Positions 31,051 to 37,483 are shown, counted from the first letter of the stretch. The stretch: DNA of 54,391 nt from Candidatus Tayloriibacteriota bacterium (GCA_029288475.1 JARIHA010000168.1:1-54391), one strand, 5' to 3'. Program-made: numbers and translations. The notes: generated by a model from the sequence alone, not told the origin.

Positions 31051-31145
31051 TGTCTTTTAATTATATCGCTTTTCTTATGATCTGTAGCTATACAAAACAG
31101 ACAAACTATTATCCAATGCTTCTCGAGCGATGCACAAGGTGACTG

Positions 31146-31163
31146 GAGGGAAAGGGACTCGGT
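31146..31163 (-). repeat. tRNA-Gln 3'-end-like direct repeat (copy A)
   Basis: GAGGGAAAGGGACTCGGT is identical to 32244..32261. It closely matches the plus-strand text of the tRNA-Gln T-arm/acceptor 3' end (GGGGGAAAGGGACTCG at 37415..37430). Confidence 0.6.
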
Positions 31164-31214
31164 CCTTACAGAACCAGCACAGGTTTCGTATCGTGCATTA
31201 CCCTGCTTGACTAA

Positions 31215-32129
31215 TTAACCAGAAACAGCCACTGGCACAAGCTCTTGTATTCTCTTAATCGCGTACTTTACAAAATCAAGTTCCTTACCATTTTTCTTGT
31301 TAGTAATTCCCCACTTAATACTATCAACGAGGCGCAGAATAACGAGTATTTCGACATCGTGCTTTATAAGTTCATAATGCGCTTTAGATATTCCGTAGCC
31401 TTTCATGAAAGCATTTTCGTATTTTTCACCATATCCCCACGTTAAGACCTCGGAGAGCTCGAGATGAGGCGCGCGATGCGCTCCTGCGGTACCCCAATCA
31501 ATGAGATAGACCCTGCCAGCAGGATCAATGACAGTATTCTTCGGCGCCAAGTTTGAATGACAGAGGACAGGATCAAATTGCCAATTATAAAGCTCGCTTA
31601 TTCTCTTTGTAATACACTCAACTTGAGATTGGTTTAAGATACTTTCTTTAATGAAGAAATTCGTCTCAAATAGCCATTCAAGTGACCAATCAATAACACC
31701 CTTCCATTCATTTACAAAATCATCGTCATCTGGATTCTTTAGATCCTCTCCATAACCTTTCACTTTTACACTATTTATCTTTTTTGCGTACTGCCCGAGC
31801 GTATACCAAATTCGTTCTTTATCTTCAGGCTTTTCAGTACCATCTACGCCTTCAATGTATTTAAAAATAGAATACGCCTTATCATTACAAATACCAACAT
31901 CAATAACAGTCGAGGTTGGGACACCTACAGCAGATACCTTTTCAATACACCATTTTTCTTTTACATAAGTTTTTAGGGCTGAAGCATTCTGAATTCTGAA
32001 AATGTATGAATCATTCTTAATTACAGCCTTGAACACATTATTGATTTCGCCCTTGCCGAGAATGGGAAAAACAGCAGTCGGTTTTATACCGAATACTTTT
32101 AAGGAAATAGCGTCCACTGTTTCATTCAT
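31215..32129 (-). CDS. aminoglycoside/choline-kinase-type phosphotransferase (APH family) protein
   Basis: 304 aa with the kinase-fold catalytic region LCHSNLAPKNTVID...YLIDWGTAG. The usual HxD is replaced by HSN. Confidence 0.75.
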   Translation of the reverse strand: MNETVDAISLKVFGIKPTAVFPILGKGEINNVFKAVIKNDSYIFRIQNASALKTYVKEKWCIEKVSAVGVPTSTVIDVGICNDKAYSIFKYIEGVDGTEKPEDKERIWYTLGQYAKKINSVKVKGYGEDLKNPDDDDFVNEWKGVIDWSLEWLFETNFFIKESILNQSQVECITKRISELYNWQFDPVLCHSNLAPKNTVIDPAGRVYLIDWGTAGAHRAPHLELSEVLTWGYGEKYENAFMKGYGISKAHYELIKHDVEILVILRLVDSIKWGITNKKNGKELDFVKYAIKRIQELVPVAVSG

Positions 32130-32168
32130 GGATTTTATTATACCTAATATACGGCAAAATTGCTGATA

Positions 32169-32210
32169 CTATCAAAAACCATGAGTAGTAATACTCATAG
32201 TTTTTGATAG
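32169..32210. repeat. 19-bp inverted repeat (long hairpin)
   Basis: CTATCAAAAACCATGAGTA (32169-32187) pairs with TACTCATAGTTTTTGATAG (32192-32210) with one mismatch and a 4-nt loop. It lies 40 nt upstream of the APH start. Confidence 0.7.
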
Positions 32211-32243
32211 TACTCGTGCGGGAGAACCTAGCTCTTGTTGGCT

Positions 32244-32261
32244 GAGGGAAAGGGACTCGGT
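32244..32261 (-). repeat. tRNA-Gln 3'-end-like direct repeat (copy B)
   Basis: GAGGGAAAGGGACTCGGT. With 2 nt of left flank, CTGAGGGAAAGGGACTCG (32242-32259) matches 37413-37430 at 17 of 18 positions. A roughly 100-nt GC-rich hairpin-rich patch follows. Confidence 0.6.
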
Positions 32262-32470
32262 TACGGATAATTTCCTCGCCGCCGCTCGGAAATTTCCGCG
32301 ACCCCGGCTCGCGGTTCGCCCTGCTGGGCTCACATCCGCTCCGCCTTTCTCGTCTATTTTACCCCTTTCAAGACTACCATTTTCTTCATGCACTCAAAAA
32401 CACCAAACACTCAGGAATGTAGTGGTAAAGATTCTCTGCCGCTACTGCTAGCATCTTAGATAAAACTTGA

Positions 32471-35498: not shown

Positions 35499-35528
35499 AA
35501 AAAAACAGCCTGCACTGGAAGGTGCAGG
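35499..35528 (-). terminator. intrinsic terminator after the 35555..36031 gene
   Basis: On the minus strand, CCUGCAC-CUUCCA-GUGCAGG is followed by CUGUUUUUUU. It lies 27 nt downstream of the stop. Confidence 0.6.
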
Positions 35529-35554
35529 ACTGTTGCGGTTGCGGAGGCGATATC

Positions 35555-36031
35555 TTATTGCCTCGCTCGTCGTTGAAAGTAGAGGAAGATTCCATCGTGG
35601 TGTTTTAGAGCGGCAGCGTTTACAGACGGCGGCACCTCTAACGGAAACTGTCCATGAACCTCTGTGGCGGTCAAATCTGCTACACACTCAAGGTCTGGTC
35701 GCGCCACTGTTTTGAACCACAGACACGCGCGCCCGAGATCGTAATCTTTGTAAGGGAAGTAATACCACCCATGGCCGTGGTTGATGATGGGATGATGCGG
35801 CGACTTGTCCAACAAGTCTAACGTGCCGGCTTTGAGGACGGGCATGTATGTCGCGTTTCCTGGATTTACATCTGCGGAACTGATTTTAGTTGAGTCTCCG
35901 GGATTGACAATTCCCGGCCGCGTCGGTGTGTCTAAAATAGTTGTGTCGGCGTATTGGGTAATTACTGGCAGACACGAGATTAGTATGATGGAGGCAATGC
36001 CTGCACCCAACTTTAGTGAAGGGCGTTTCAT
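35555..36031 (-). CDS. hypothetical secreted protein
   Basis: The ATG at 36031 gives MKRPSLKLGAGIASIILISCLPV, which looks like a signal peptide. The ORF-track start at 36058 is TTG. The last roughly 50 codons lie in the GC-rich mosaic and may not be native. Confidence 0.5.
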   Translation of the reverse strand: MKRPSLKLGAGIASIILISCLPVITQYADTTILDTPTRPGIVNPGDSTKISSADVNPGNATYMPVLKAGTLDLLDKSPHHPIINHGHGWYYFPYKDYDLGRACLWFKTVARPDLECVADLTATEVHGQFPLEVPPSVNAAALKHHDGIFLYFQRRARQ

Positions 36032-36459
36032 AATGGTATGGCTTCTTGTCCTCGACAATCATCTTACAGGGACGATTTGTCGGGGCTTTCAATGTATTTA
36101 TCAAATACACTAAAAGCCTCGACAAATAATTGTGCCACATGGGAGGATGTAAGAATGGAATGAACTTGGCTCTAATGGGAAGTATATAACAAGTAATGTA
36201 ATATGTCAATATGTTATCCGGAGTTGGAACAATTTCCAATAATTGTATGTTGCTTGTATTATTCTGAATGCTGAATCTATTTGATGTAGCCTTCAGAAGT
36301 TTATCGAGGATGCCGGGATGTGTTTTAGGCTATCGACCTTTTTGTTAATGATTGCTCACGCACGTCTGGATGCTTTATTGTGTCTCACATTGCCCTAACA
36401 GTCTGTTGAATTATCCCCCGGCAATTTGAATATTTAGTTGACTGCGATGTCTGACTTGT

Positions 36460-36648
36460 ATGTTCTCCGCGAAAAAGAAAGTGGCTCAGGCCGAATTCTG
36501 GATTGCTGCCGATCATATAGTCACGTCCGCCAAGAGTGGGTTCTATGCCAAGCTGGATGAGACCTTGGAGAGCTTTGGGTTTGCCGCCAAGGTGCGCGAA
36601 CTCTGCGCTCCGGCCTACGACAAGAGCGGGCACCGCGCTGTTCATTGA
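36460..36648 (+). pseudogene. N-terminal fragment of an IS5/IS1182-type (DUF772-containing) transposase
   Basis: EFWIAADHIVTSAKSGFYAKLDETLESFGFAAKVRELCAPAYDKSG parallels the conserved ..FYxRLNxLLxxxGFDxFVExLCxPYYAxxxGRPS.. N-terminus of these transposases. It stops where GRPS should follow, and no DDE domain lies downstream. Confidence 0.5.
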
Positions 36649-36739
36649 CATCTAAATTAGAATCAAAAATGGGGCATTCGACAGGTTCGCGGAATCGTGA
36701 TAGTAAATTATTGTGGCTCAAGCTTTTGTGAGGGCCACT

Positions 36740-36890
36740 ATCGCTCTCGGGTCACACCGGGAGCGCGGATTGAAACGGAGAGGATTCTAGCGCGATCCAG
36801 CAGCGTGTTTAATCGCTCTCGGGTCACACCGGGAGCGCGGATTGAAACATACTGCTTGATGTCTTCAGCGACGAATTTAGCGCATCGCTC
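36740..36890 (+). CRISPR. orphan mini-CRISPR array: 2 full repeats, 2 spacers, third repeat truncated after 7 nt
   Basis: The identical 37-nt repeat ATCGCTCTCGGGTCACACCGGGAGCGCGGATTGAAAC occurs at 36740-36776 and 36812-36848. Unique 35-nt spacers lie at 36777-36811 and 36849-36883. ATCGCTC (36884-36890) recurs at exactly the expected spacing. The repeat has an internal 9-bp stem and ends in GGATTGAAAC. Confidence 0.75.
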
Positions 36891-37472
36891 ATGAAACTTC
36901 GCGAACTTCATAAGGTGGAAAGTTCCTCGCAGGACGACATCAATCGTTCCAACCACCGGGCCTACGAGGCGTGCGTCGCCAGGCTGGACCGGCTTGTGCG
37001 GTTCAAGACCTCGCCGGATAACTCCGACGGCAGCCTGCTCTCGAATGAGGAATACGCGCGCGAACGCTCCGCGCTTCTCAAGGAGAAGGCCGGTTTGGAG
37101 GAACTCACCCGGGATAGCGGCAAGCGCGAAGAGCAGTGTTTGGACTTGTCGGAGAGGGTCTTTGAATTCGCCTGTGGCATTCGGGAACGCTTTGCCAAAG
37201 GGGACTTCCAAAGAAAAAAGGAGATTTTGTGGATGGTTGGATCGAACCTCCGGCTAATCGACAAAAAATTGAGGATTGAAGCCAAAAAACCCTTCGTAAT
37301 CCTGGGATCGTTGTTACCGCATGTGGCGAATGAAACCGGGCCAATCGAACCTCCGATTATGCCGATGCCACCAAGGCAAAAGGAGGCGGTTGCCTCCCTT
37401 TGCACAAGCCTGCTGGGGGAAAGGGACTCGAACCCCTATACTATGCGCCAAAGGCATATGTCCTACCATTAG
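36891..37472 (+). pseudogene. C-terminal fragment of a large serine recombinase
   Basis: The 193-aa frame ..LSNEEYARERSALLKEKAGLEEL..RVFEFACGIRERFAKGDFQRKKEILWMVGSNLRLIDKKLRIEAKKPF.. matches the coiled-coil and C-terminal tail typical of large serine recombinases. No resolvase catalytic domain or zinc ribbon lies upstream. The frame begins directly after the truncated CRISPR repeat and runs 60 nt into the antisense of tRNA-Gln. Confidence 0.55.
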
Positions 37473-37483
37473 ACGATCCCCCA
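37413..37483 (-). tRNA. tRNA-Gln (anticodon UUG), CCA not encoded
   Basis: Hand-folded cloverleaf: acceptor UGGGGGA/UCCCCCA (U1-A72), D stem GUCU/GGAC, anticodon stem UAUGC/GCAUA with loop CUUUGGC, T arm AGGGG-UUCGAGU-CCCUU, discriminator G73. U1-A72 plus G73 is the classical bacterial tRNA-Gln identity set. Confidence 0.9.

Follow-up and report, generated by a model that had tools for sequence, protein, structure and literature searches.

Why should the 3' end of a bacterial tRNA gene recur twice, in the gene's own orientation, kilobases away from the gene itself? The question is raised by a stretch of 54,391 nucleotides from Candidatus Tayloriibacteriota bacterium (GCA_029288475.1, JARIHA010000168.1:1-54391; 'the window' denotes this whole stretch), where such copies lie on the 3' side of a tRNAGln gene. 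An earlier interpretation made without database searches (the sequence-only reading) took them for scars of decayed genomic islands, left by two adjacent segments acquired at the tRNA. We conclude that the region from 31143 to 37411 is probably a stack of two decayed units of one element family, which integrated successively at the 3' end of tRNAGln, and that the locus represents, in decayed form, an apparently undescribed variant among the integrative elements that target tRNAs. The source genome is a small metagenome bin (42% GC, 192 contigs, 2.85% contamination) with the look of the candidate phyla radiation (CPR; Patescibacteria), and the relatives with which it was compared all belong to other families of the same order.

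Copies of the tRNAGln 3' end and their folded modules

The 3' end of tRNAGln, read on the plus strand, is CTGGGGGAAAGGGACTCG (37413-37430). It recurs as CTGAGGGAAAGGGACTCG at 32242-32259, with 17 of 18 positions matching (copy DR2), and, with one extra base, as CTGGAGGGAAAGGGACTCG at 31143-31161, with 18 of 19 matching (copy DR1). An exact 18-mer, GAGGGAAAGGGACTCGGT, is common to the two distal copies (31146-31163 and 32244-32261), and a 14-mer, GGGAAAGGGACTCG, is common to the tRNA end and the copies (at 32246 and 31148), on one strand throughout. With up to two mismatches allowed, the 14-mer is matched three times in the window; shuffles give an expectation of 0.30, and none of 100 shuffles reaches three. 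In the whole 946,046-bp assembly it is found, exactly or with one mismatch, at these three sites only, all on the same strand, and is therefore no generic genome-wide repeat; frequent occurrence elsewhere had been set beforehand as the refuting test. An intact tRNA gene thus bounds one end of the island, and a co-oriented repeat of its 3' fragment, rare elsewhere, lies at the far end. The 3' end of the tRNA faces lower coordinates, the side on which the copies lie, a geometry that fits the island claim. Neither ARAGORN nor Rfam finds a tRNA at either distal copy. The sequence-only reading was thus correct about the three co-oriented copies and the shared 18-mer, which sequence and repeat search bear out, and about the copies not being tRNAs.

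The repeats are more than bare scars: each is an arm of a conserved, structured module, because a core that we call type 1 lies beside DR2 and a junction of a different type (type 3) beside DR1. The module at DR2 consists of an antisense arm (A), a three-way-junction core and a sense arm (S). Single-sequence folds agree on a Y shape. Its outer stem is formed by the antisense arm paired with the sense arm; inside this stem follow GAAA, a short stem that has an internal loop and a variable hairpin, then GG, and finally the long hairpin GGUCGC…GUGACC. In the window, the stretch beside the 32242 copy carries the core …GAGCCGGGGTCGC…, with all of the segments GAAAG, CGGAG, CGAG, GGGGUCGC and GUGACC. 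Its S arm copies tRNAGln from C56 on (17 of 18 nucleotides), and its A arm is decayed yet recognizable, reading GAAAGGG, an 8-nt insert and then GACGAGAAAG.

Alignments of full modules made with MAFFT (A1 to A3) were misaligned. The covariance model R1 was derived instead from a skeleton alignment (A4) whose variable P2a loops we had shortened by hand; R1 is consequently a search tool, and pair counts based on it lean towards the model and are somewhat inflated. R1 matches the window at 32252-32354 (84.9 bits, E 3e-21, model positions 1-86) and has matches in 321 of the order's 401 genomes, where the number of copies per genome reaches 11 or more. Across 39 matches, in an alignment fitted to R1, 97.2% of the cells pair and 23 of 27 pairs show double (compensatory) changes, while one G.U pair, kept in 38 of the 39, points to the tRNA-sense strand as the folded one. 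Inspection of 37 matches showed a co-oriented tRNA, of many isotypes, ending 4 to 83 nt upstream in 29 cases; one or both arms of the tRNA-linked modules match that tRNA over 14 to 27 nt.

In the source genome itself, R1 finds two modules (84.9 and 82.4 bits). The module on contig C76, behind a tRNASer, has a core identical to the window core at 88 of 92 positions, with a compensatory change in stem P2, and its arms, unlike those in the window, match tRNASer. This locus (C76:2166-2425) comprises tRNASer(UGA), a terminator hairpin and the Y module, in that order; the antisense arm is complementary to the tRNA end over 18 nt without a mismatch and the sense arm is decayed, the reverse of the window copy. 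Among the loci L041 to L070, long exact identity to the tRNA end tends to be found in the sense arm (19 to 27 nt) or in the antisense arm (16 to 23 nt), seldom in both, a pattern that suggests two states or two histories of units.

Type-1 cores do not extend to the outer copy: R1 finds none on the DR1 side. A compact, decayed type-3 module stands there, and its junction, …CTGGTCCTGTAAGGAC|CGA…, precedes DR1 just as the same junction precedes a tRNAAsn end copy in a related genome (L110). The hairpin at this junction overlaps the first bases of DR1. It occurs in 106 of the 401 genomes, against about 10 matches of a reversed-pattern control, and its variants covary as a 5-bp stem.

On its other side, DR2 is followed by a short trailer. 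The same motif is found, at the same offset, directly behind functional tRNAGln genes in two relatives (G321 and G272) and behind tRNASer in a third (G383), and in a fourth (G001) it follows a copy of a tRNA end. Searched with up to two mismatches, the motif is in all no more frequent than a reversed-pattern control, so that the four matches at tRNA ends alone are meaningful and the argument rests on position. Given that the trailer stands behind functional tRNAs in three genomes, DR2 was probably once a live tRNAGln end. A left end conserved after DR2, and found elsewhere behind functional tRNAs, is what tandem accretion predicts. Beyond the trailer, a 21-bp hairpin occupies the place where units of the family carry a hairpin behind the tRNA end.

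No published description of the Y module or of the element family was found in the literature, and the module is apparently undescribed. At the gathering threshold, Rfam matched only the tRNA in the window; a scan of 31050-32450 at E<=10 gave only spurious microRNA-like matches on the 21-bp hairpin. A hammerhead-like junction and a retroviral-type primer-binding site were considered and dropped on inspection of the sequence, which lacks the boxes, genes or junction strands that would define them.

A conserved scaffold followed by 17 to 20 nt identical to a target could also describe a guide RNA, in the style of TnpB/Cas12 or of the homing CRISPR RNAs of CRISPR-associated transposons, that directs a nuclease or transposase to the tRNA, the copies being the guides. 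The arms are indeed re-programmed for each tRNA around a near-identical core, and GGTT precedes the matched stretch in the tRNA. The antisense arm, however, pairs with the would-be guide and would sequester it; there are small units without any open reading frame (ORF); no guide-RNA family of Rfam was matched; no gene resembling TnpB, IscB or Cas12 turned up beside the inspected modules, for which no dedicated search was run; and the genes that do co-occur encode serine recombinases. We regard a guide function as very improbable.

The recombinase and its islands in related genomes

The sequence-only reading had recognized the C-terminal fragment of a serine recombinase in the larger segment. 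Indeed, translated searches (tblastn) place the C-terminal third of a large serine recombinase (LSR) next to tRNAGln: residues 379-567 of the 567-residue LSR on contig C183 of the same genome match 36855-37421 (E 3.7e-16), and residues 420-582 of the LSR of a relative (G334) match 36963-37448 (E 9e-18). The C183 protein has the domains Resolvase, Recombinase and Zn_ribbon_recom. In the window, the N-terminal 380 or so residues, including the catalytic domain, are missing, and the fragment has no Pfam match, let alone the full LSR domain set; as its sequence stands, it is a remnant incapable of catalysis. The window contains no catalytic domain of the Resolvase or Phage_integrase (PF00589) type, in keeping with the claim that no intact integrase is left, and the integrase class is likely to have been LSR, not tyrosine integrase.

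The position of the fragment is informative. LSR homologues are present in 226 of the 401 genomes, and among the best 30 LSR loci, 24 end on or in the 3' end of a convergent gene for a tRNA (Asn, Ser, Lys, Asp, His or Leu) or for transfer-messenger RNA. The C183 gene is one of the 24, with its stop codon within the 3' end of a convergent tRNAAsn. It is the only intact LSR gene of the genome (C183:976-2739, L071), on a contig of 2.8 kb on which the rest of the element is unseen. The window fragment shows the geometry typical of the order, and a terminator-like hairpin of the tRNA is carried on its antisense strand, within the tail of the recombinase frame. A hairpin and T-run directly behind the tRNA are also found in the LSR islands of relatives and on C183, and the hairpin in the window is probably the tRNA terminator. 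The fragment, on this layout, appears to be the tRNA-proximal end of an LSR element and not a piece of random patchwork.

Up to 20 kb were fetched beyond 20 tRNA-adjacent LSR genes. Three of these islands, in three other genomes, end in a module and a tRNA-end copy, with arms matching the anchoring tRNA: a 10.8-kb island at tRNASer with a type-1 core (L103; R1 58.8 bits), a 6.3-kb island at tRNALys with a second type of core (L102), and an island at tRNAAsn in which two tRNA-end copies follow one another, at 7.9 kb and at 10.6 kb, both of them behind the third type of core (L110). The far ends of L102 and L110 carry two tandem small units of hairpin, antisense arm, core and sense arm. The module at DR2 does not lie within some 100 nt of its tRNA; it is 5,057 nt away, a distance found elsewhere only where cargo or an LSR island intervenes (L050, L103).

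In 5 of 20 relatives, the last 17 to 19 nt of the genome's own tRNAGln are copied 127 to 330 nt behind the gene, and the five copies close a GC-rich structured stretch that opens with an antisense copy of the same end; tRNAGln ends vary widely among these relatives. On the other side, the order dnaX then tRNAGln is kept, within 1.5 kb, in 13 of 19 relatives of the order. Within a single genus, tRNAGln is followed by a small unit in G005 and by unrelated DNA and genes in G122 and G321; with a 3' side so variable, the site is a hotspot. Encoded CCA after the discriminator also differs among the tRNAGln genes of G005, G122, G321, G272 and the window, and its presence appears to depend on the element that supplies the tRNA 3' end. 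In one further genome (L039, G008:C9, 1573-1950), a second, partial tRNAGln, comprising the last 45 nt and 16 nt of flank, lies behind tRNAGln and a module; the resulting 61-nt direct repeat encloses an insert of 261 nt and represents another kind of duplication at the tRNAGln site, on the anticodon side.

A probable stack of two units, its proposed history and its rivals

LSR geometry, the islands of relatives, the trailer and the co-oriented tRNA-end copies together support the view that two adjacent segments were acquired at tRNAGln. Units of the family have a layout in common, which recurs in other genomes. Read in the direction of the tRNA, a unit opens with a tRNA 3' end that replaces the old one (S), followed by a short trailer and by a hairpin, probably the terminator of the tRNA. 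Optional content follows, then the antisense copy of the tRNA end (A) and the conserved folded core, and the far end of the unit abuts the displaced, older tRNA end. The optional content may be nothing, cargo genes, or an LSR gene that overlaps the tRNA end, on the opposite strand, with its last codons.

Applied to the window (Table 1), this layout suggests the following history. The native tRNA end would be what is now DR1, which is likely to be a displaced tRNAGln end. A one-gene unit (31164-32241), made up of a gene for an APH-like protein and the type-3 module, would have integrated first and brought DR2 as its own tRNA end. The LSR-bearing unit (32262-37411), ending in the type-1 Y module, would then have entered the regenerated tRNA, pushing the former end outward and bringing the tRNA end and terminator seen today. 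Subsequent events would have deleted the 5' two thirds of the LSR gene, leaving two CRISPR-like repeats at the break, and fused or truncated other genes. We infer both this order of events and the role of the LSR as the integrating enzyme. The crossover was probably at the T-loop, where identity to the tRNA begins (C56), and integration by a serine recombinase at the tRNA T-loop is the best supported mechanism. Judged by what it encodes, the content of the window appears no longer able to move by itself.

Table 1. Features of the tRNAGln locus, from the tRNA gene to the outermost copy of its 3' end
Feature	Coordinates	Strand	Basis and remarks
tRNAGln(UUG), intact	37412-37483	minus	ARAGORN; Rfam RF00005, 60.4 bits; sole tRNA gene of the window
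S1, proximal copy	37413-37432		Plus-strand text; last 20 nt of tRNAGln
Terminator-like hairpin	37375-37399	minus	GGAGGC-AACC-GCCTCC, then TTTT; read from sequence
LSR, C-terminal third	36855-37472	plus	tblastn; frame enters the tRNAGln 3' end
CRISPR-like repeats	36740-36848	plus	Repeat search; two exact 37-nt repeats (…GGATTGAAAC), one 35-nt spacer
Binding-protein chimera, 502-residue ORF	33288-34796	minus	Pfam Peripla_BP_6, residues 31-254, profile 1-223 of 343
Y module, type 1 (module 1)	32262-32375	minus	Decayed antisense arm at about 32355-32375; three-way-junction core 32262-32354
DR2, distal copy	32242-32261	minus	Sense arm (S) of module 1; 17 of 18 identical to the tRNA end
Left-end trailer of inner unit	32212-32241	minus	Reads CCAACAAGAGC-TAGGTTCTCCCGCACGAGT; encoded CCA first
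21-bp hairpin	32167-32212		Repeat search; 95% complementary, 4-nt loop
Gene of APH/choline-kinase fold, 304 residues	31215-32129	minus	Pfam APH, E 2.3e-11; sole cargo gene of the inner unit
Type-3 module, compact, decayed (module 2)	31164-31214	minus	Junction hairpin CTGGTTCTGTAAGGACCGA at 31159-31177
DR1, outermost copy	31143-31163	minus	Sense arm of module 2; 18-mer common with DR2

Several observations weigh against this history. A far-end copy is identifiable in only 3 of about 15 LSR islands examined (up to 20 kb). In two of these three (L103 and L110), the far-end module is preceded, just upstream, by a further, decayed copy of the tRNA end; the module could then be a small unit in its own right rather than the end of the island. 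Four genomes checked by eye (G005, G012, G020 and G039) have 9 to 11 modules and no LSR homologue at E<=1e-20, so that something other than LSRs may spread the small units. A C-to-T difference sets both DR1 and DR2 apart from the live tRNA end, and the simple three-step history does not predict it. No homologue of the window's ORFs of at least 80 residues was found within about 15 kb downstream of tRNAGln in 20 relatives, and with no close relative and no common downstream gene order an empty site cannot be shown. Nor is the island set apart by its composition, since the GC-rich stretch 33991-37411 (GC content 0.495) is similar to the dnaX side (0.481), both being atypical for the assembly. 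A search for public sequencing reads with which to check the assembly found none.

The second and third of these points would fit if Y modules were immobile host RNA genes standing behind tRNAs, and an unrelated LSR element had pushed a resident module 5 kb off; DR2 would then be an arm of a resident RNA gene and not an insertion scar. The same reading would account for the short distance of most modules from their tRNA (4 to 83 nt), for their strong covariation and the high conservation of their unpaired bases, as in functional RNA, and for a tRNAVal whose module is kept at 85% identity between two congeners. It predicts, however, that a tRNA end displaced by the insertion should separate the island from the resident module, and no such extra copy is detectable before module 1 in the window. 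Nor does it suit modules that stand in tandem or are separated from the tRNA by cargo (L050, L110 and the APH unit of the window), the two copies in the source genome, whose 96%-identical cores bear arms for different tRNAs, the variable presence of modules within a genus, or the trailer at DR2, which marks the left end of an element. We consider resident RNA genes an unlikely explanation.

The composition of the region raises a different doubt. GC content drops from 0.48 to 0.32 at about 34000; the interval 32-34 kb is rich in AT, at the 95th percentile, 34-37.4 kb is rich in GC, at the 99th, and the composition of 31.1-32.2 kb is typical. Segmentation by k-mer composition, which the sequence-only reading had suggested as a check, fails to isolate the island, because the dnaX side is equally atypical. 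If the assembly had been misjoined, for instance at the GC step near 34.0 kb, tRNAGln and the copies of its end could come from different strains or organisms. That the bin is metagenomic, in 192 contigs and with 2.85% contamination, that the step is abrupt and falls inside an ORF, that 34-47 kb is the most GC-rich part of the bin and that DR1 and DR2 depart from the live tRNA end at one and the same base would all be in line with such an artefact. Against it, the ORF is open across the step, contig GC is unimodal, the bin holds a single dnaX, and the distal arms fit this particular tRNAGln at 17 of 18 positions although tRNAGln ends differ widely among relatives; and were there a misjoin, the left part would still be a stack of units behind some tRNAGln. 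A misjoin of this kind seems to us improbable. The GC-rich part extends from 34000 to 47000, 13 kb across tRNAGln that include dnaX and transporter genes, at a GC content of 0.48 to 0.50 (only 0.3% of the bin's 2-kb windows reach 0.50), and its cause could be local heterogeneity, old acquisition or a misjoin.

The cargo gene of the inner unit encodes a protein whose catalytic loop, read from the translation as LCHSNLAPKN, has HSN instead of HxD; NCBIfam gives weak APH(3') matches only, with resistance-gene models far below cut-off, and the protein may be a pseudokinase or an atypical kinase. In the larger segment, the solute-binding-protein gene had been said to have its 3' part replaced by AT-rich DNA, and this is borne out: the family match covers 223 of the 343 profile positions and ends at the GC step, and the C-terminal 250 residues are AT-rich in coding sequence and have no significant family match. 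The supposed truncated CRISPR array survives only in part. Its two CRISPR-like repeats are real and end 7 nt before the LSR homology starts, that is, at the break of the recombinase gene. They fall short of an array of at least three repeats accompanied by cas genes, which were not searched for, or by further arrays, and the assembly holds no further copies of the repeat elsewhere. A third, truncated repeat at 36884 was rejected because LSR homology already begins at 36855. Two other proposed pieces could not be verified, an insertion-sequence transposase fragment at 36460-36648, with no match in Pfam, NCBIfam or a tblastn comparison with plasmids, and a gene 3' remnant (ORF 34940-35176), for which no match was found. 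A candidate decayed third copy of the tRNA end near 32420-32440 was discarded, the alignment being too weak.

Relation to known systems and significance

Known large serine integrases mostly target protein-coding genes or intergenic sites. Their attP lies outside the integrase ORF, and no folded module or inverted copy of the target is known beside it. The LSRs of the order otherwise resemble the integrases of Bxb1 (PMC1470463), phiC31, A118 and SPbeta (SprA), which have Resolvase, Recombinase and zinc-ribbon domains and a coiled-coil C-terminus, and, as for Bxb1, integration would be site-specific and at short att sites.

The locus also resembles the tRNA and tmRNA islands of the Islander type, which have an intact tRNA at one end and a co-oriented copy of its 3' fragment at the other, a 3' end supplied by the island, an integrase gene adjoining the tRNA, and tandem accretion (PMC4383910). 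Those islands are reported to be moved usually by tyrosine integrases (PMC4383910), whereas here we find an LSR whose own 3' coding end overlaps the tRNA end, and a far end that carries a folded module and an antisense copy of the target. The tycheposons of Prochlorococcus are likewise tRNA-targeted cargo elements; successive integrations have stacked them, and their integrases are found in fragments and partial tRNAs scattered among them (bioRxiv 10.1101/2020.12.28.424599). Most of them use tyrosine recombinases, and 27 of 937 are listed there with a large serine recombinase (bioRxiv 10.1101/2020.12.28.424599). They differ in belonging to another host phylum; a search of that paper for 'hairpin' gave no match, and neither a structured end module nor a gene-less miniature unit was seen to be mentioned in it.

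A folded site with one preferentially structured strand, and one-gene units chained head to tail, recall the attC sites of integrons and the folded attP of CTX phage, in which an imperfect palindrome likewise lets two arms rebuild a duplex copy of the target. Could the locus be an integron-like cassette array, with the T-loop as attI, the modules as attC, and single-strand recombination by a tyrosine recombinase? Both one-gene and gene-less units are closed by an imperfect-palindrome module, and the conserved G.U pair would agree with a structured strand. Integrons and CTX, however, rely on the tyrosine recombinases IntI and XerCD and on defined sequence boxes, which the locus lacks: the R''/R' boxes of attC (RYYYAAC and GTTRRRY) are lacking, and the junctions read GTRAC|CGA and not G|TTRRRY. 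No IntI-type gene adjoins the site, as there is no PF00589 match in the window and the gene upstream is dnaX, and the associated recombinases are serine recombinases. Such an array is largely refuted and barely credible.

What the modules do is a matter of speculation: the folded core and antisense arm might be part of the recombinase site, a strand-specific origin or RNA, or a stored template of the target. In the most far-reaching version, which we think quite unlikely, the Y modules would be working cis-parts, as folded RNA or single-stranded DNA, of undescribed tRNA-targeting elements mobilized by serine recombinases throughout the order and probably the phylum, ranging from gene-less units of 130 nt through single-gene cassettes to 10-kb islands; the antisense arm would store a copy of the target and, after landing, re-template the replacement tRNA end by hairpin repair. 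Re-templating of this kind would explain how near-identical cores can bear arms for different tRNAs in one genome.

Taken alone, the locus is an ordinary decayed island, and its value is that of a dissected example, in which a unit with a recombinase, a unit with a single gene and folded end modules of two types are stacked at one tRNA, in one place. It connects serine-recombinase islands with the 'mini-elements' that are so common behind the tRNA genes of CPR bacteria. Genomes with few known mobile elements would, if the family is borne out, have in it a main route of gene gain. The family would also supply serine integrases whose tRNA targets are natural and conserved, and might add a structured nucleic acid as a new partner in recombination. 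And if the modules should prove to be cis-parts of such elements, the family would be a serine-recombinase counterpart of integron-like gene capture at tRNA ends.

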